DNA of 29,073 nucleotides from a virus (Duplodnaviria > Heunggongvirae > Uroviricota > Caudoviricetes): the IMG/VR virus record IMGVR_UViG_2778261396_000002. The stretch is one strand, 5' to 3'. Position numbers and translations under genes: made by a program. The notes under the pieces were generated by a model. That model ran no database searches. It was not told the origin of the DNA and saw only the letters and a list, made by a program, of their open reading frames with translations. Positions 11,686-27,662 of this stretch are shown here, one piece after another (the first letter of the stretch is position 1; every line of letters starts with the position of its first letter).

Positions 11686-11738
11686 GGGCGGCAGAGCAGT
11701 CACGGAGTAAAACTGATACCGCCAAACGTCACCAGAAA
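11686..11738 (-). ncRNA. dicF: DicF small RNA (53 nt; ftsZ-targeting)
   Basis: Reverse complement reads TTTCTGGTGACGTTTGGCGGTATCAGTTTTACTCCGTGACTGCTCTGCCGCCC followed by T-run, matching recalled DicF; lies between ydfC and dicB. Confidence 0.85.
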
Positions 11739-12780: not shown

Positions 12781-13188
12781 TTATTTTATTGATTTATTTT
12801 TACGCGCTTTAAGCATTTCTTCGAAGAGTTTGTTGAAGTTTTCTACTCTTGCGCGCATTTCAGACAGCAAGGCTTCCTGCTCGGAAGATGGAAGAGCATC
12901 GAATAATTCGATCAATTCTTTGTGGTTGGGAGTTAGCTCTGTTTCCACATGAAGTTCTTGTGCAGGCACTGGTGCCTTGTCTTCGTCACCAAACATTAGC
13001 CATGTAGGTGAGCACTTCAGAGCATCCGCTAAAGCAAACAATCGTTTTCCGACTGGCTGGGTTTCGTCTCTTTCCCATTGTGAAATTGTGACGTGAGCAA
13101 CTCCAGCGAGGCGCGCGGCTTCTCGTTGTGTTAAGCGTAATTCTTTTCGTCGCGCCAGAACTCGCTGGCCCAGGGTTCTTGTATCCAT
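12781..13188 (-). CDS. dicA: HTH (Xre/cI-like) repressor DicA homolog (135 aa)
   Basis: ORF translation; HTH LTQREAARLAGVAHVTISQWE; C-terminal …LKCSPTWLMFGDEDK…EMRARVENFNKLFEEMLKAR resembles DicA; N-terminus diverged from K-12 as recalled. Confidence 0.8.
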   Translation of the reverse strand: MDTRTLGQRVLARRKELRLTQREAARLAGVAHVTISQWERDETQPVGKRLFALADALKCSPTWLMFGDEDKAPVPAQELHVETELTPNHKELIELFDALPSSEQEALLSEMRARVENFNKLFEEMLKARKNKSIK

Positions 13189-13210
13189 AGTTAGGTAATT
13201 CTAATTTTTC

Positions 13211-13255
13211 TTGACTTAGGTATCCCGCGCACAATAATGTTAGAAAAATCTAACA
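13211..13255 (+). promoter_or_regulatory. dicC promoter (-35 TTGACT, 17-bp spacer, -10 ATAATG) overlapped by operator TGTTAGAAAAATCTAACA (13238-13255)
   Basis: Sigma70-like hexamers read directly; palindrome immediately downstream of -10; located in divergent dicA/dicC intergenic region. Confidence 0.5.
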
Positions 13256-13269
13256 AGAGGGGGGCTTTG

Positions 13270-13497
13270 ATGCTTAAAGTTGACGCAATTACTTTTTTTG
13301 GCAGCAAAACAAAGCTTGCCAATGCCGCAGGAGTGAGGCTGGCAAGTGTTGCTGCTTGGGGGATACTGGTTCCTGAAGGTCGCGCGATGCGTCTACAGGA
13401 GGCATCTGGCGGGGAGCTTCAGTATGATCCCAAAGTTTATGATGAATATCGTAAGACGAAGCGGGCGGGGCGGTTGAACAATGAAAATCACTCCTGA
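13270..13497 (+). CDS. dicC: Cro-like regulator DicC (75 aa)
   Basis: Internal ATG of ORF 13237..13497: MLKVDAITFFGSKTKLANAAGVRLASVAAWG…EGRAMRLQEASGGELQYDPKVYDEYRKTKRAGRLNNENHS. Confidence 0.85.
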   Translation: MLKVDAITFFGSKTKLANAAGVRLASVAAWGILVPEGRAMRLQEASGGELQYDPKVYDEYRKTKRAGRLNNENHS

Positions 13498-14002
13498 ACA
13501 GGCTCGTGAGGCTCTGGATGCCTGGATATGTCGACCAGGAATGACACAGGAGCAGGCGACGATATTAATCACTGAAGCATTCTGGGCTTTGAAAGAGCGC
13601 CCGAACATCGATGTTCAGCGTGTCACAGATGAAGGTGGCGCGGTTGATCAGCGAGCGCTTGGTGTTAATCGAGTGAAGATATTCGAACGCTGGAAGGCTA
13701 TCGATACCAGGGATAAGCGTGAAAAGTTCACGGCGCTAGTGCCTGCGATTATGGAGGCTATCCGGATTAGTGATTTCAGGTTGTATCGTGAAATTACTGA
13801 CGGAAAAAGCATCACGTGCATGATCGCCGGGTTAAACAAAGAATATGGCGATGTGGTGGAGTCCGGACTGCTTTTTGCTGATCCTGCCGTAGTGGATCGT
13901 GAAACTGACGAACTTATAGAAAAAGCAATTGCTTTCAAGCTTGCGTATCGACAGCAATACCAACAAAAAGCTGGATGGAATTATGAGCCTTCTTTTTGCT
14001 GA
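13481..14002 (+). CDS. YdaT-like prophage protein (cII-position gene), 173 aa
   Basis: ORF translation MKITPEQAREALDAWICRPGMTQEQA…; position directly after cro-like gene; family assignment from memory only. Confidence 0.45.
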   Translation: MKITPEQAREALDAWICRPGMTQEQATILITEAFWALKERPNIDVQRVTDEGGAVDQRALGVNRVKIFERWKAIDTRDKREKFTALVPAIMEAIRISDFRLYREITDGKSITCMIAGLNKEYGDVVESGLLFADPAVVDRETDELIEKAIAFKLAYRQQYQQKAGWNYEPSFC

Positions 14003-14948
14003 ACGCCCACTGGTTATAAACACGCAGCTGGCAATGAAAATTGGCTTAAACGAAGCCATTGTTTTGCAACAACTGCACTACTGGTTGAGAGATACCAACT
14101 CCGGCATGGAATGTGATGGTGTTCGCTGGATTTATAACACAACGGAACAATGGCTGGAACAGTTCCCATTCTGGTCAGAGTCAACGTTAAAGCGCGCGTT
14201 TGCAAGTCTGAAAACGCTGGGGCTTTTGCGTTGTGAAAAGCTCAATAAATCAAAGCGCGATATGACCAATTTCTACACGATCAACTATGGGAGCGAGCTT
14301 TTAGATGGTGGCAAATTGAGCGAATCCATCGGTTCAAAATGCGCCGCTCCATCAGGTCAAAATGACACGATGGAAGAGGTCAAAATGAAACGCTCCATTG
14401 GTTCAAAACGACCCAATGTCATCGGGTCAAAATGGCCTGATGATCTTACAGAGAATACAACAGAGATTACTACAGAGAATAAAAACACTTTTCGTCCGGA
14501 AGCTTCGCAACCGGACCCGCAGACGACTGAACAGGATTTTTTAACCCGGAACTCCGACGCGGTTGTGTTTAGTGCGAAAAAACGCCAGTGGGGTAGCAGG
14601 GAGGATTTGGCGTGTGCGCAGTGGATCTGGGGGCGGATCGTGGGTCTCTACGAACAGGCAGCCAGTGATGATGGCGAGATCATGCGACCAAAAGAGCCTA
14701 ACTGGACTGCCTGGGCCAATGACGTGCGCACAATGCGGATGCTGGATGGCAGAAGCCACAGACAAATTTGCGAAATGTTTGGTCGGGTTCAGCGAGATCC
14801 ATTCTGGGTAAAAAACATCATGAGCCCGTCAAAGCTCCGCGAAAAATGGGACGAACTGGTCATCCGCCTGGGACGTTCACCTGTACAGCGTTGTGTTAAT
14901 CATATTTCTGAACCGGATACAGAAATTCCGCCTGGTTTCAGAGGATAA
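13983..14948 (+). CDS. Phage replication initiation protein (lambda O-like, HTH N-domain), 321 aa
   Basis: ORF 13929..14948; ATG 13983 MSLLFAERPLVINTQLAMKIGLNEAIVLQQLHYWL…; repeated SIGSK peptide motifs encoded by DNA iterons. Confidence 0.7.
   Translation: MSLLFAERPLVINTQLAMKIGLNEAIVLQQLHYWLRDTNSGMECDGVRWIYNTTEQWLEQFPFWSESTLKRAFASLKTLGLLRCEKLNKSKRDMTNFYTINYGSELLDGGKLSESIGSKCAAPSGQNDTMEEVKMKRSIGSKRPNVIGSKWPDDLTENTTEITTENKNTFRPEASQPDPQTTEQDFLTRNSDAVVFSAKKRQWGSREDLACAQWIWGRIVGLYEQAASDDGEIMRPKEPNWTAWANDVRTMRMLDGRSHRQICEMFGRVQRDPFWVKNIMSPSKLREKWDELVIRLGRSPVQRCVNHISEPDTEIPPGFRG
14327..14436 (+). repeat. Five direct iteron-like repeats (core GGT(T)CAAAA(T/C)G, ~23-bp spacing) inside the replication gene – candidate prophage origin
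   Basis: Cores at about 14331, 14355, 14378, 14400, 14424 read directly from sequence. Confidence 0.55.
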
Positions 14949-14988
14949 GTGTTGATTTCAGGTCATGAGGTAATTTTAAGGGGGACTT

Positions 14989-15411
14989 GTGGCAAAAGTT
15001 TTTACACAAGAAGAGCGGGAAAAAATTAAATGGCAGGTGGTGGAACTCGTGCGCCAGAGCGGCCGTGAGACGTTACGGCAACTGGAAGCTAAAACAGGTG
15101 CGACTAGATATCTGATGAGCGTTCTTGCCAGAGAGCTGGTAGCCAGTGGCGATGTATACAACTCCGGCTACGGGTTATTCCCCTCTGAACAGGCGCGTAA
15201 GGACTGGCAAAACGCCCGCAAAAAACTCTCGAGGGCAAAGGTGAAGAAACCTGCTGTGGTTGATCCGGACCTTATCTGGTCATCACCTGACGGAGAAATA
15301 CGTCGCTACGACAGTCGCCTAAACATAATCTGTCGCGAGTGCCGGAAGAGCGAAGTTATGCAGCGCATACTGGCTTTCTATCAGGGTAATTTTCAGGACG
15401 TGGCGCAGTGA
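14989..15411 (+). CDS. Hypothetical prophage protein (140 aa, GTG start)
   Basis: ORF with AGGGGGA SD 4-5 nt upstream of GTG; stop overlaps next gene start (GTGA). Confidence 0.45.
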   Translation: MAKVFTQEEREKIKWQVVELVRQSGRETLRQLEAKTGATRYLMSVLARELVASGDVYNSGYGLFPSEQARKDWQNARKKLSRAKVKKPAVVDPDLIWSSPDGEIRRYDSRLNIICRECRKSEVMQRILAFYQGNFQDVAQ

Positions 15412-15854
15412 GTGCACCGGCAACCATTCTTGATATGTGCTGTGGCAGCCGCATGTTCTGGTTCGATAAGTCTGACGAACGGGCGATATTCAGCGATATC
15501 AGAAAAGAAGGATACACATTACGCAATGGGAGACGCTTGATTATCAGCCCTGACATTATCGCAGATTTTCGTGCATTATCATTTGCAGACGCATCTTTTT
15601 CGATGGTTGTATTAGACCCTCCGCATCTTGAGAGTGTTGGTGATAACGCCTGGATGGGAAAGAAATATGGACGGCTGAATAAAGATGCCTGGCGTGATGA
15701 TTCGCGACAGAGATTTAAAGAAGCCTTTCGGGTGTTGAGGCCGCACGGCGTTCTGATTTTTTAATGGAATGAAACGCAAATACCGGTAAGCCAGATTCTG
15801 GCACTGACAGACAGAAAACCTGTTATCTGTCAACGAACAGGGAAAAAACGATAA
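15408..15854 (+). pseudogene. SAM-dependent (gamma-class-like amino-) methyltransferase remnant with in-frame TAA at 15762-15764
   Basis: Motif I-like LDMCCGSRMF and motif IV-like VVLDPPH; same frame continues after the TAA for 29 more codons; total still short for a DNA MTase. Confidence 0.4.
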
Positions 15855-16026
15855 AACCCACTGGATTATTTTTATGAAAGAGGCATCCAGTGAGTAGATT
15901 CGTAAGGCTACAGATACGTATATCTGAATAATTAAATTCAGTTCTGTAAATAAAATTTAATCCTTAACCGGATGGATTTCTGCACCCTCAGAACATCAGG
16001 AGGCCGCCCGAAAGGGCGGTAGTGAA

Positions 16027-16137
16027 ATGCGAAAGTTCAAAATTATTATTGAAACGGGAATAGCTGGTGGAGATTTTGAGGATGTATTCGAAGTGGACGA
16101 TGACGCAACACCTGAGGAAATTCATGACGGAGCATAA
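16027..16137 (+). CDS. Small acidic ORF (36 aa) preceded by AGGAGG and a GAAA-tetraloop hairpin
   Basis: ATG 16027 … MRKFKIIIETGIAGGDFEDVFEVDDDATPEEIHDGA*; below ORF-track size cutoff; manual translation. Confidence 0.3.
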   Translation: MRKFKIIIETGIAGGDFEDVFEVDDDATPEEIHDGA

Positions 16138-16186
16138 GAAATTTTCTTTAACTACTGCAATTACTCATACCACGAAATAAAAGACG

Positions 16187-16378
16187 ATGAGGAAGAACAA
16201 AGTGGCTGATTTTTGTTCAGCTAAATATAACATCAGTTTTGAAGAGCGGGATGAACTATTAATGGACTATGGTGAGTTACGCGGTGGAAGTGCTGCTGAT
16301 GTCGAATCCTAGCGTGATGACTATGAAGCGGGAAAAACTCCGGTCGAAGCATATTGTGATGAGTGGGGCGATGAATGA
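16187..16378 (+). pseudogene. Small ORF (63 codons) with in-frame amber TAG at 16310-16312
   Basis: MRKNKVADFCSAKYNISFEERDELLMDYGELRGGSAADVES*RDDYEAGKTPVEAYCDEWGDE*; stop overlaps next ORF start (ATGA). Confidence 0.35.
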
Positions 16379-16662
16379 GCGAGATTAATTATCAGGAAGG
16401 GCATGAAACGGCGGGGCAAGCAAAACCAGTGGCATGGCGATATCGCTACGTGAAAAAAGGCGTTACGGACTTTCAGGGGAAGTAGTGGTCTGGTGACTGG
16501 AAATATGTACCGAAAAAAGAGGATTGTAACGACAGGCCGAACTATCAAATTCAGGCCTTATTCACTGCCTCACCAGTCCCAGTTACATCAGAAGAACTGG
16601 TTAAAGCTGTGCACTTTTATGAACAACTAAAACGCGAAAATCCACCAACATCCGGCAACTAG
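16375..16662 (+). pseudogene. Small ORF (95 codons) with in-frame amber TAG at 16483-16485
   Basis: MSEINYQEGHETAGQAKPVAWRYRYVKKGVTDFQGK*WSGDWKYVPKKEDCNDRPNYQIQALFTASPVPVTSEELVKAVHFYEQLKRENPPTSGN*. Confidence 0.35.
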
Positions 16663-16916
16663 ATTAATGGATTAACTATGTCGGTTAAACGACCAGCCAA
16701 CTGAAAAAGCGGAAACCTGATTACAGGTTGCCAGATAAGGCAATGAGCTACCTGGCGCGGAACGGACTGATAAGTATGGGGAATGTTTTACGATGAACCT
16801 TTAGACTAAAGAGTTTGTAACGCTATGTAAGTGATTTTTTCTGGTTTAGATATTTATATGTCCGGCCAAATTGAGGTGTGTTTAAATGTAATTGCACATT
16901 GATTGTAGGAGGAATA

Positions 16917-17096
16917 ATGAAAAACGCATTGCAGTTTTTGTTTGTTGCGTTCTGGTTGTTCGCATCATGTATGCCCATCATCTTCACAGCAAGGTATATG
17001 GAAAAAGTTGATGTTTTGATATTAATATTTGGATATATAAATGCCCTTTTTTTAGGGGTGTTCATGGCGGTCATGTGCATTGAATACTGGCGGTAA
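16917..17096 (+). CDS. Small two-TM membrane protein (59 aa)
   Basis: AGGAGG SD at 16907-16912 then ATG 16917: MKNALQFLFVAFWLFASCMPIIFTARYMEKVDVLILIFGYINALFLGVFMAVMCIEYWR. Confidence 0.45.
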   Translation: MKNALQFLFVAFWLFASCMPIIFTARYMEKVDVLILIFGYINALFLGVFMAVMCIEYWR

Positions 17097-17430
17097 ATAC
17101 AGCGAACTCCATTGGTTTAGTTGGATATTTACTGTGCTGGACAAAAACGGTTTGCGGGGAAATCTTAGTTAAGTAGAATGACTGCGGGTGCTTGAGGCTA
17201 TCTGCCTCGGGCATGGACACCAACGGCAGATAGAGAAAAGCCCCAGTTAACATTACGCGTCCTGCAAGACGCTTAACATTAATCTGAGGCCAATTTCATG
17301 CTAGACACATGTAGGTTAGCCTCTTACGTGCCGAAAGGCACGGAGAAGCAGGCTATTGTTAACACCAAGCTGTAATGTCCCCTTTGAACCATTCTAAAAT
17401 GTCCCCAGACAATTCTCTGGGGGATTTTTC

Positions 17431-18744
17431 ATGATCAAAGAGACTGTTACGATGAGTCATAAGGAACTCCACCGACTTCAGATTATTCAGGAACAAGCTG
17501 CGGCACGCATTGGCATTTCTATTCGGCAGGTTAAACGTCTGGTGCAACGGTATAGAAATGAAGGGCCTTCTGGTCTGGTTTCCCACCGACGTGGAAAGCG
17601 TCCTAATAATTCCTTTTCTACTGAATTCAGAGCAACAGTAATTTCACTCCTCAAAGGCCGTTACGCTGATTTTGGACCTACGTTTGCGTGCGAAAAATTG
17701 CGCGAGATACACGGTTTATCTTTATCCGTTGAAACTCTCAGAAAGTGGATGATAGAAGAGGGGTTATGGCGTGAACGCCGTCGTAAAATTGCCCGTATAT
17801 ATCAACGCCGCATGCGACGACCATCTTACGGTGAACTGATCCAGATTGATGGCTCACCTCATGACTGGTTTGAAAATCGAGGCCCCAGATGTACACTGAT
17901 CGTTTTCATTGATGATGCCACCAGTGCGTTGATGGCGTTGCGTTTTGTGCCTGCTGAAACAACCCGGGCTTACATGGAAACCCTCCGGGGTTACCTTAAT
18001 GATCATGGCGTACCGCTCGCTCTCTACTCTGATAGACACAGTATATTCAGGGTAAATAACCCAGAGCGGGAAGGTGAGCTGACCCAGTTCACTCGTGCGA
18101 TAAAGACACTGGGCATCGAGCCAATCCATGCCAACAGCCCGCAGGCAAAAGGGCGGGTAGAGCGCGCCAATCAGACACTACAGGACAGGCTGGTCAAAGA
18201 AATGCGGCTTCAGAATATCAGTGATATTGAAACAGCAAATGCATGGTTGCCGACCTTTATTGAAGCCTATAACAACCGGTTCGCTACGTCGCCTCGTACT
18301 ACTGATAATGCTCATCTTGATGTGCACCATTCTGAAGAGGAACTGGGTTATATCTTCAGCCTACAGGCGAAGCGCGTTCTGTCTAAAAATCTCACTTTCC
18401 AGTACAAAAGCAGTGCGTTTCAGGTACGCAGTGAGGGCCGGGGATATCGACTTAGGCATTCGGTTGTTACTGTATGCGAGAACTTTGACGGTGAAATTAA
18501 CGTTCTGTATGACGGGAAAGCGCTGGGCTGGGAAAAGTATGTTGATGGCCCGGAGCCTATACCACTGGATGATGAAAAGAGTGTCCATGAACGAGTGGAT
18601 AATGCCCGTATTGATTTACGCTCAAAATACTATGTTAAACCTAAAGCTGACCATCCCTGGCTTACGCGCCGAACGCAAAGTCATCAGCAAGTTAAGCCCC
18701 CGAAGTTACCTAAAAAGAAGCCTGATCCCGATAAAAAAGATTGA
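17431..18744 (+). CDS. DDE transposase, integrase-core (rve) type with N-terminal HTH; ISNCY(IS1202/ISPlu15-group)- or IS481-like (437 aa)
   Basis: ORF translation: HTH (GISIRQVKRLVQRY), DDE-type core (…IQIDGSPHDW…ALYSDRHSIF…ANSPQAKGRVERANQTLQ…); family from memory. Confidence 0.8.
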   Translation: MIKETVTMSHKELHRLQIIQEQAAARIGISIRQVKRLVQRYRNEGPSGLVSHRRGKRPNNSFSTEFRATVISLLKGRYADFGPTFACEKLREIHGLSLSVETLRKWMIEEGLWRERRRKIARIYQRRMRRPSYGELIQIDGSPHDWFENRGPRCTLIVFIDDATSALMALRFVPAETTRAYMETLRGYLNDHGVPLALYSDRHSIFRVNNPEREGELTQFTRAIKTLGIEPIHANSPQAKGRVERANQTLQDRLVKEMRLQNISDIETANAWLPTFIEAYNNRFATSPRTTDNAHLDVHHSEEELGYIFSLQAKRVLSKNLTFQYKSSAFQVRSEGRGYRLRHSVVTVCENFDGEINVLYDGKALGWEKYVDGPEPIPLDDEKSVHERVDNARIDLRSKYYVKPKADHPWLTRRTQSHQQVKPPKLPKKKPDPDKKD

Positions 18745-24063: not shown

Positions 24064-24363
24064 AAAAATTCCTTAATACTGATAACTTGGCGCACTATAC
24101 ACACGTTCCTGAAGAAAGCTATAGTTTTTTGATGGGGTTGAAGATGGCTGGATGTCTAAAATAAACATTGCTTCATATGTTCAACTATGCGTTAATGATT
24201 GCGTCGGTTTGAAGAACAGACGATATACGAAGTAGTTTACTAAAGCAGTTCTCATTTCAGGTGTTATTCACTTATTCCTTCTTTGAGTCTCTCCAATTAA
24301 GTACGAAGTCGTTTCTGTTATGCAAACCATTTATGCCGAAAGGCTCAAGTTAAGGAATGTAGA

Positions 24364-24579
24364 ATGTCAAATAAAATGACTGGTTTAGTAAAATGGTTTA
24401 ACGCTGATAAAGGTTTCGGCTTTATTTCTCCTGTTGATGGTAGTAAAGATGTGTTTGTGCATTTTTCTGCGATTCAGAATGATAATTATCGAACCTTATT
24501 TGAAGGTCAAAAGGTTACCTTCTCTATAGAGAGTGGTCCTAAAGGTCCTGCAGCAGCAAATGTCATCATTACTGATTAA
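24364..24579 (+). CDS. cspB: Cold-shock protein CspB (71 aa)
   Basis: ORF translation [71 protein letters not shown]. Confidence 0.93.
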
Positions 24580-24861
24580 AATTCATCGCTCGTCTGTATA
24601 CGATAACGAAGAAGGCTGATGCCTGAGTAGAGATACGGACAGAGTAGTGAATATTGGATCTCTTTAATAAAAAGTAAGGAGGTCCAATACATGAAACAAT
24701 GGCTAGCATATTTGGCAAAATCTTAATCAGGAAAAGTATGCTAACCATTGTGGTGAAGTGCAGGTTTGCTGCATGAATAGTTTTACAGCAGAAGCTAACT
24801 GCTGGCATGGCAAAACAAAGTGCGTAAGTGGATGACTCCCACAAAAAGCACCACAATCTCA

Positions 24862-26888: not shown

Positions 26889-27250
26889 GGTAATATTAAA
26901 TCGGAACATTTACATCGCGGAATGTAAAATTTAAATAAAAAGGACTCTTCCATGAGCCAAAATTCCTGAAATCTTAAGGGTAAGATAAAAGGTCTTAATC
27001 AGAATGACACGTTTTATTAATAAATAAAGCTATTCTTTCATTGCTGTGTTTTTCTTTACAAAAGTAATCCTTGCTATGGGTGGTTAATCATGCGTTAATG
27101 GTGTTCTGGTTTGTTACAAATTTATCTGAAGCAGTCATTGTTATAATTTTATTATTTGTACCTCTTGAGATTTCCTTGTTGGTTTTTCTCTCTGATATTT
27201 TTTTTCGGACCATTCTGCCCAAGGGCTAATTTCTTCAAAAGGTAATAATT

Positions 27251-27463
27251 ATGTCTAACAAAATGACTGGTTTAGTGAAATGGTTTAACCCTGAAAAAGG
27301 TTTTGGTTTCATCACGCCGAAAGATGGCAGCAAAGATGTGTTTGTCCATTTCTCAGCAATTCAGAGCAACGATTTCAAAACATTAACTGAGAATCAGGAA
27401 GTTGAATTTGGTATTGAGAACGGACCTAAAGGTCCTGCCGCTGTTCATGTAGTGGCGCTTTGA
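27251..27463 (+). CDS. cspI: Cold-shock protein CspI (70 aa)
   Basis: ORF translation [70 protein letters not shown]. Confidence 0.93.
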
Positions 27464-27662
27464 GGTAGACAATATTACAAACCATATTCACTTTAGATGC
27501 CCGTGTTGTCATGGTTCCCAGTATAGAACATCATCTTTTGATGTTTCTGACATGAATCCTTTCGGGGCAAAATGTATCTTTTGTAAATCAATGATGATTA
27601 CATTTGATAATATTTCACAATACTTAAATGCCAGCCGTCTGTCGTTGGATTTAAAAAAGTGA
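27453..27662 (+). pseudogene. Zinc-ribbon ORF (paralog of 24943-25113) lacking canonical start; open frame begins inside cspI 3' end
   Basis: Frame open from TAG at 27450-27452: …HFRCPCCHGSQYRTSSFDVSDMNPFGAKCIFCKSMMITFDNISQYLNASRLSLDLKK*; first in-frame ATG (27552) lies after first Cys pair. Confidence 0.35.

Follow-up and report, generated by a model that had tools for sequence, protein, structure and literature searches.

An ori-lambda-like candidate replication origin inside the initiator gene of a Qin/mEp460-type lambdoid prophage

We analyzed a viral DNA stretch of 29,073 nucleotides (IMG/VR record IMGVR_UViG_2778261396_000002; hereafter the window, to whose full length all coordinates refer), which is an E. 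coli prophage of the Qin/mEp460 lambdoid type, lying at the rspB/ynfE locus. In its early-right region lies a gene for a 321-aa protein of the "replication initiation O-like" family, and inside this initiator gene we find an array of iterons followed by an AT-rich block and a palindrome. Here, we describe this candidate replication origin, the protein that encloses it, the short C-terminal tail that this protein shares with the host primosomal protein DnaT, and the lack of a helicase-loader gene downstream.

Iterons and an AT-rich block inside the initiator gene

The features of the initiator gene are listed in order of position.

13983-14948, + strand: initiator gene, 321 aa, "replication initiation O-like" (phrog_391, PHROG E 1.1e-91)
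13983-14306, + strand: region coding for the winged-helix N-terminal domain (N-domain, aa 1-108), the presumed iteron-binding domain
14304-14326: degenerate upstream iteron (unit 0), core TGGCAAATTG (7/10), in register 23 bp before unit 1, a repeat copy at 67%
14327-14349: iteron 1, CATCGGTTCAAAATGCGCCGCTC (repeat search, core pattern, symmetry scan)
14350-14372: iteron 2, CATCAGGTCAAAATGACACGATG (16/23 self-complementary)
14373-14395: iteron 3, GAAGAGGTCAAAATGAAACGCTC (repeat search, core pattern, symmetry scan)
14396-14418: iteron 4, CATTGGTTCAAAACGACCCAATG (16/23 self-complementary)
14420-14442: iteron 5, CATCGGGTCAAAATGGCCTGATG (16/23 self-complementary)
14442-14489: AT-rich, purine-skewed block made of GATC, three 12-bp tandem repeats WACAGAGAWTAM and then AAAAACAC, the presumed DNA-unwinding element
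14494-14516: palindrome GTCCGG-N11-CCGGAC with a central AAGCTT, immediately right of the AT-rich block
14529-14873, + strand: region coding for the helical C-terminal domain (C-domain, aa 183-297), from BLASTP to lambda O and an AlphaFold2 model with a predicted local distance difference test score (pLDDT) of 70-83
14883-14945, + strand: region coding for the 21-aa C-terminal tail VQRCVNHISEPDTEIPPGFRG, matching E. coli DnaT residues 159-179

A repeat search of the window returned a direct-repeat family of five copies with start-to-start distances of 23, 23, 23 and 24 bp, confirming an earlier, sequence-only reading of this DNA that had placed five direct repeats about 23 bp apart at 14327-14436. 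The exact core GKTCAAAAYG occurs at 14332, 14355, 14378, 14401 and 14425, always on the + strand (array 14332-14434), and the complete 23-bp units span 14327-14442. One further match in the window, at 279 on the - strand, is unrelated to the array, and dinucleotide-preserving shuffles of the 29-kb window yield a mean of 0.40 matches with a maximum of 2. Each unit follows the near-palindrome CATCnGGTCA-AAA-TGACnnGATG: units 2, 4 and 5 are self-complementary at 16 of their 23 positions, against 5.5 +/- 2.9 for 23-mers of the gene. The position of the degenerate unit 0 holds a good copy (GAGGTCAAAGTGACC) in divergent homologues. We saw no second iteron or AT-rich candidate near the early-right operon, and found no DnaA boxes at up to one mismatch within 13000-15500.

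The AT-rich tract, whose presence the sequence-only reading had left to be checked, lies immediately downstream of the repeats (GC 0.28-0.35). Across 14430-14489, GC is 0.30-0.35 in 40-nt segments and the AT skew (A over T) reaches 0.57; the lowest 40-nt value, 0.28, starts at gene nt 463 (window 14445). The tandem 12-mers read, in order, TACAGAGAATAC, AACAGAGATTAC and TACAGAGAATAA, a repeat that can be written ACAGAGAWTAC and that presumably constitutes the unwinding element. A stretch of 40 bp of this block is 97.5% identical in "O" genes of Stx phages with unrelated N-domain and iterons, and the block is recognizable in relatives as distant as Bacillaceae. The palindrome to its right is self-complementary at 16 of 23 positions, again relative to the gene mean of 5.5 +/- 2.9.

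The ACAGAGAWTAC repeat (3-5 copies; peptide TENTTEITTE) is kept as DNA far beyond the surrounding sequence, and besides the window it is found at 2500-2560 of locus L010 (a Stx1 phage "O" gene), in L011 (Pantoea AH07) and in L109, L141 and L128. We considered whether it might be a cassette common to many initiator families, which is mostly not the case: 110 of 116 IMG/VR matches fall in the N-domain family described below, and the few with other N-termini are L228 and L285, plus a Stx "O" gene. A recombination joint between initiator alleles falls at the AT-rich block and palindrome (query position ~460-500).

The cores are read in frames 1, 0, 2, 1 and 1 from copy 1 to copy 5. The repeated SIGSK motifs that the sequence-only reading had ascribed to the array are therefore genuine for copies 1, 4 and 5, which share one frame and encode SIGSK, SIGSK and VIGSK, but not for copies 2 and 3, which are read in the other frames as PSGQN and EEVKM. 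Since the cores occupy all three frames, the repeat belongs to the DNA and not to the peptide. The conservation of the array points the same way. Eight divergent homologues were compared with the window as reference: an E. coli prophage (gene 78% identical), a Klebsiella phage, and Citrobacter, Raoultella, Enterobacter and Izhakiella loci. DNA identity to the window is 0.905 in the iteron cores and 0.916 in the 12-mer block, with 0.78 in the inter-core spacers, 0.71 over all positions of the N-domain DNA and 0.45 at its third codon positions. Repeats conserved only as protein, with synonymous drift beneath, had been named beforehand as the outcome that would speak against origin iterons, and the cores, at 0.905 versus 0.45 for third positions, do not behave in this way. 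Where homologues swap residues (G to R, S to L), the core consensus stays intact (GGTTCA to AGGTCA). These alignments show that the DNA of the origin stretch is more strongly constrained than the coding sequence flanking it.

Across some 80 homologues (100-45% aa identity), an array of 4-6 copies with 22-24 bp spacing sits at gene nt ~325-450, in hosts that include Pantoea, Xenorhabdus, Providencia, Pseudomonas, Acinetobacter, Psychrobacter, Bacillaceae, Lactobacillaceae and Staphylococcus. The palindromic core differs from lineage to lineage (GGTCAAAATGACC, GGGCAAATTGCCC, GGACAATTTGTCC, GGATCAAAATGATCC, ACGACAAATTGTCGT and TACCCAAAATGGGTA), and this variation with the initiator lineage is what one would expect if initiator and sites evolve together.

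The initiator protein and its relation to lambda O and RepA_N

The initiator gene is an exact match (100%) of the gene called "DNA replication protein O" in PhiR42_1, and is 98% identical in HannyBb and 96.7% identical in mEp460_ev081, deposited phages in which the origin is present too. The phrog_391 match is full-length (residues 17-321 against positions 11-298 of the 298-position profile), and no Pfam model matches the protein. An AlphaFold model (mean pLDDT 61) shows three parts: the N-domain, a linker of aa 109-175 predicted to be disordered (pLDDT below 30), and the helical C-domain. The iterons and AT-rich block (gene nt 325-525) encode exactly this disordered linker.

The C-terminal half aligns with lambda O at 34% identity over 148 aa (BLASTP, E 1e-26), and no solved structural relative of the C-domain was found. 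BLASTP finds no N-terminal similarity to lambda O, and the N-domain has no match to PF04492 (Phage_rep_O) even at E<=1, in a run in which lambda O itself scored 5.7e-36. The label "O-like" thus fits the C-terminal half of the protein but not its DNA-binding domain, which is not that of lambda O. The N-domain is instead modelled as a winged helix, of a kind that may be RepA_N/DnaD-like, with no match to the Pfam RepA_N family (PF06970) at E<=1. It defines a family of 10,312 clusters at 50% identity (E<=1e-3), much of whose membership is proteobacterial, and none of ten diverse members has a Pfam match over this domain.

In the family (proteins P0121-P0269), the domain is present twice in tandem in some proteins of 400-880 aa. 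Annotations of initiators in the family are often "transcriptional regulator", "hypothetical protein" or "Primosomal protein I", example records being Pantoea phage AH07 (L294, 29018-29911) and RefSeq E. coli entries; in RefSeq the initiator is mostly a "hypothetical protein", and one phage record has "transcriptional regulator". The label "Primosomal protein I" presumably reflects the DnaT-like tail. Three database entries of 448 aa (P0001, P0002 and P0004; PF06254, YdaT family) show 99-100% identity over 99% of the initiator and, from their sequence, appear to have been called as a YdaT-initiator fusion.

In lambda and Stx phages, the middle of gene O holds the origin, four or six iterons with an AT-rich tract (PMC7466680). 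The window resembles this arrangement in several ways. The offset of the origin within the initiator gene is the same (lambda iterons at gene nt 349-433, window cores at 350-452); the iterons, at 20-24 bp spacing, show dyad symmetry and an A-tract, the lambda design TCCCTC-AAAAC-GAGGGA being like the window's arms around its A-tract; an AT-rich tract and then a palindrome follow to the right; the origin DNA encodes an inter-domain linker; the C-terminal domains are homologous; and the initiator gene lies downstream of cro and a cII-like gene and would be transcribed from a pR-like promoter. Together with the conservation of the DNA and its covariation with lineage, this supports the proposal that these are lambdoid-type origin iterons embedded in the initiator gene. 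The two systems differ in iteron sequence (GGTCAAAATGACC in the window, TCCCTCAAAACGAGGGA in lambda), in the number of units (five to six in the window), in the AT-rich part, which in the window is a conserved 3 x 12-bp repeat, in the family of the N-terminal domain, in the tail (...TNTDWIYGVDL in lambda O, DnaT-like in the window) and in the P gene, which the window lacks. Because of its different N-domain and missing P, the window's module is not a strict member of the lambda O/P family.

The second point of comparison is RepA_N, for which we used pSK41/pTZ2162 RepA (PDB 4pta) and the PLE RepA of Vibrio cholerae (PMC7145576). RepA_N iterons take the form of semi-palindromic direct repeats with inverted arms that meet at a poly-A tract, a definition that window cores of the GGTCA-AAA-TGACC type fit (PMC7145576). 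The modular build is also alike: the N-domain is conserved, the middle varies and the C-terminal part is specific to the host. The differences are the lack of a Pfam RepA_N sequence match in the window protein, a phage rather than plasmid context, the lambda-O-type C-domain and the largely proteobacterial membership of much of the family.

The DnaT-like tail, the loader-less gene order and the prophage context

The last 21 residues of the initiator match the end of DnaT (primosomal protein i), whose sequence was taken from K-12. phmmer aligns the tail to PDB chains 2ru8, 6aep and 9zbt_D over 21 residues that end at both C-termini, and the pattern (V/D)N..SEPD..IPPGFRG is common to the two proteins at the very C-terminus. 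The NCBIfam DnaT model (PRK02854) matches at positions 160-179 only, scoring 16.2 bits against a curated cut-off of 201 bits that is not reached. Nothing in the remainder of the initiator resembles DnaT, and the three-helix C-terminal single-stranded DNA (ssDNA)-binding domain of DnaT was not found in it. A DnaT- or DnaD-like nature of the C-domain was considered and rejected: a profile of seven tail-less C-domains found only noise, and no DnaT, in the PDB, and hhalign gave the C-domain profile a probability of 0.3% against DnaT, leaving the tail as the only shared part.

The ..[IV]P.GFRG ending also occurs on homologues with an unrelated C-domain from Klebsiella, Raoultella, Citrobacter, Enterobacter and Pantoea. 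The DnaT-like tail is found, then, on two unrelated C-domains, of lambda-O type and of Phg_2220_C type, the latter in the initiator of Pantoea phage AH07, so that its behaviour is that of a portable short linear motif.

Directly 3' of the initiator gene, at the place held in lambda by P and then ren, lies a DUF977 gene that is not a helicase loader. The sequence-only reading had noted correctly that no P/DnaC-like gene follows, and had added that the module looks incomplete. This last point is not supported: the O-like-then-DUF977 order recurs in PhiR42_1, HannyBb and mEp460_ev081, and going without a loader is the rule, holding at 67 of 68 IMG/VR loci and 30 of 31 genome/phage loci with this tail. 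Searches by tblastn with lambda P, E. coli DnaC, the prophage DnaC paralogue and a phage DnaB-like protein gave no downstream match in the window or in its phage relatives. The complete 45-kb genome of HannyBb has no annotated helicase, loader or primase, and the same queries found nothing there; nor was a loader, helicase or primase found in the whole genome of Pantoea phage AH07. In mEp460_4F5 and in Klebsiella and Pantoea phages, PerC-like or Dam genes follow the initiator, and no loader is present there either. We also rejected DUF977 as a substitute loader, as it occurs alongside a DnaC-like gene in O157:H7 and is missing from other loader-less relatives. The loader-less form is thus common and evidently viable.

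The kind of tail goes with the presence of a loader. A loader or helicase gene lies within ~2 kb of a GFRG-tailed initiator at 1/31 genome/phage loci and 1/68 IMG/VR loci, compared with 25/49 loci for other-tailed initiators of the same N-domain family; after dereplication at 90%, the figures are 1/21 GFRG-tailed and 22/46 other-tailed clusters (nominal p 6e-4). When the same lambda-O-type C-domain ends in HWNSPEAWENTL, a lambda-P-like gene follows, and the tail SGFSEQDYG..DCNW accompanies DnaC-like and DnaB-like genes. Loci with other tails include L100 and L102 (Izhakiella, Trabulsiella) and L107, L108, L110, L124 and L125. Tails of Firmicute members are acidic and aromatic (EEDFRFDDET, ..KDDLPF), reminiscent of the C-terminus of SSB, the protein that binds single-stranded DNA.

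The surroundings of the initiator gene are those of a lambdoid early region. The early gene order is int, xis, a large exonuclease, ydfD, dicB, DicF RNA, ydfABC and a cI-like repressor, followed rightward by a P22-Cro-like gene, a cII-like/YdaT gene, the initiator, DUF977, a truncated methyltransferase and an ISNCY transposase. The features nearest to the initiator gene are as follows.

12781-13188, - strand: cI-like repressor gene
13211-13238, + strand: pR-like promoter TTGACT-16-AATAAT upstream of dicC/cro, from a consensus scan only
13237-13497: P22-Cro-like gene (dicC/cro)
13481-14002: cII-like/YdaT gene
14989-15411, + strand: DUF977/"Ren-like" gene (Pfam PF06163, E 5e-29; phrog_142)

Judging from the sequence, the pR-like promoter would drive transcription across the cII-like gene and on through the initiator gene and its origin. 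There is a 20-nt overlap between the cII-like/YdaT gene and the start of the initiator gene (13983).

E. coli ATCC 8739 is 99.7% identical to the window from 13359 on and 98.8% identical upstream of 12861; when PhiR42_1 is counted in as well, identity is 99.7-99.8% on the 13359 side and 98.5-98.8% on the side upstream of 12861. The window is not the same as either throughout, since 12862-13358 is unalignable to both. This immunity segment covers a portion of the cI-like repressor gene, the operators and the beginning of cro, and on these alignments it is a swapped immunity allele. Further downstream, the methyltransferase gene (15408-15764) is truncated after 118 codons, and 15800-18744 holds AT-rich broken open reading frames and then a 437-aa ISNCY-family transposase frame (17431-18744); the deposited PhiR42_1 genome has the same broken stretch and insertion sequence. 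Rfam matches above the gathering score are the DicF small RNA (11686-11737, - strand), the sok antitoxin RNA (17186-17357, + strand) and cspA-type thermoregulator leaders of the prophage cspB and cspI genes (24203-24595 and 27105-27490, + strand).

A probable single-gene replication module and its possible helicase route

Taken together, these observations indicate that 14304-14516 is probably the vegetative replication origin of this Qin/mEp460-type lambdoid prophage, an ori-lambda-like origin inside its own initiator gene. The element is best described as a variant that combines a putatively RepA_N-like DNA-binding domain and its iterons, a lambda-O-type C-domain and a DnaT-like tail in a single-gene replication module.

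By analogy with lambda O and RepA_N, initiator dimers would bind the five to six phased sites through the winged-helix N-domain and wrap or bend the DNA; the adjacent 12-mer block would then melt, aided by rightward transcription from the pR-like promoter; and the C-terminal part would bring in the host replicative helicase. More speculatively, recruitment could run through the DnaT-like tail to DnaB-DnaC, with host DnaC or a phage DnaC paralogue, or to PriA. As the phage has no loader of its own and carries a copy of the DnaT tail, the helicase would probably be delivered by the host DnaB-DnaC or primosome via the tail and not by a P-type protein. The association of the tail with the lack of a loader, seen by comparing loci, suggests that host helicase-loading machinery is recruited directly. 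We propose, tentatively and with less than even confidence, that SEPDxxIPPGFRG serves as a portable recruitment motif, taken from host DnaT or shared with it, through which solo initiators hand the origin to DnaB-DnaC or the PriA primosome.

DnaT lacking residues 154-179 shows lower cooperative ssDNA binding (PMC4132743). The 2026 preprimosome structures treat only the N-terminal domain, linker and C-terminal domain core of DnaT, and their authors describe the mode of DnaB/DnaC recruitment as still unknown (PMC12871339, PMC13377028). Literature searches on the role of the DnaT C-terminal tail or on DnaT-like phage proteins found nothing specific, and searches on mEp460 and on a "solo initiator" class found nothing usable.

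Several points weigh against this interpretation of origin and tail. The support for replication and for iteron binding is entirely comparative. Behind the structural models, whose confidence is moderate (mean pLDDT 61 and 69), stands a shallow alignment. Since the compared sequences are related and non-independent, the p-values should be taken as nominal, and the association of tail and loader is weaker when dereplication is carried out at 70% (0/7 versus 15/35, p 0.04). A GFRG tail and a DnaC-like gene occur together in E. coli ST130 (L007) and in the O157:H7 allele (L009), and cryptic prophages of laboratory hosts, such as Rac, may be a source of DnaC-like proteins. Finally, the function of the last ~25 residues of DnaT is undefined in the three papers cited above.

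The alternative that survives best accepts a true origin type and holds that this particular module is defective or dependent, a DnaC-like and DUF1627 gene pair having been deleted so that a loader is needed in trans from another prophage. It draws on the loader-bearing relatives. O157:H7 (L009), ST130 (L007) and Rac-type ydaV-like modules share the C-domain, the DnaT-like tail (86-87% DNA identity) and the operon position with the window, but in them the initiator is followed by a DnaC paralogue (PRK12377, E 3e-152) and DUF1627; in the ST130 prophage, whose initiator gene is 87% identical, and in the O157:H7 allele, this pair stands between the initiator and DUF977. Such relatives make an origin of the loader-less order by deletion possible, and the truncated methyltransferase and ISNCY transposase downstream in the window also speak for this alternative. 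L009 further differs in its HTH_36 N-domain and in repeats TTGACCCGT at 15-bp spacing; this repeat set (L009:2832-2906) occupies the same gene position as the window iterons, with the DnaC paralogue downstream of the gene. Against a defect stand the status of the loader-less order as the majority form among loci with this tail, its presence in deposited phages, with HannyBb free of a loader genome-wide, and the unrelated PerC-like and Dam genes that follow the initiator in mEp460_4F5 and in Klebsiella and Pantoea phages, again with no loader. Dependence on a loader in trans is possible for this prophage, at low probability, and is not the general state.

Plasmid iterons also serve handcuffing and autorepression, as known in general and from the RepA_N handcuffing literature, and the repeats could likewise be initiator or regulator sites for copy control, autoregulation or incompatibility, with replication starting elsewhere in the phage. 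Such a regulatory-only role is unlikely, indeed very much so: the array is joined directly to conserved AT-rich repeats and a palindrome in ori-lambda order, the iteron and 12-mer cassette moves with the initiator gene through mosaic exchanges, and we saw no other candidate near the early-right operon. Least of all do we credit a purely protein feature, in which selection would keep a SIGSK-type peptide with the DNA periodicity as by-product: three of the five cores do share a frame giving S/V-I-G-S-K, but the 23-bp period spreads the cores over three frames, homologues alter the amino acid while the DNA stays in the core consensus, the encoded region is predicted to be disordered and core identity is twice that of the synonymous-type positions of the folded domain, so that frame and conservation data, as far as sequence comparison goes, exclude it.

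On the reading of 14304-14516 as an origin, the iteron array itself is a textbook arrangement and the origin call is ordinary; the main gain is a correct annotation of the Qin/mEp460-type prophage origin. The N-domain family, with more than 10,000 clusters at 50% identity and no Pfam model, carries in-gene iteron arrays of common design from Enterobacterales to Bacillaceae, which provides a simple rule for finding origins in many prophages. From their gene content, these phages would replicate with a single phage-encoded replication protein. If the recruitment motif is real, solo phage initiators would need no P, DnaC or DnaB gene, the tail type (DnaT-like; W-rich and P-associated; SGFSEQDYG..DCNW) would predict the helicase-delivery route of a phage, and a function would be assigned to the uncharacterized last ~20 residues of DnaT. 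The pattern of tails and loaders is the part worth an experiment, and the DnaT-like tail offers a testable handle on host helicase recruitment and on the role of DnaT's unstudied end.

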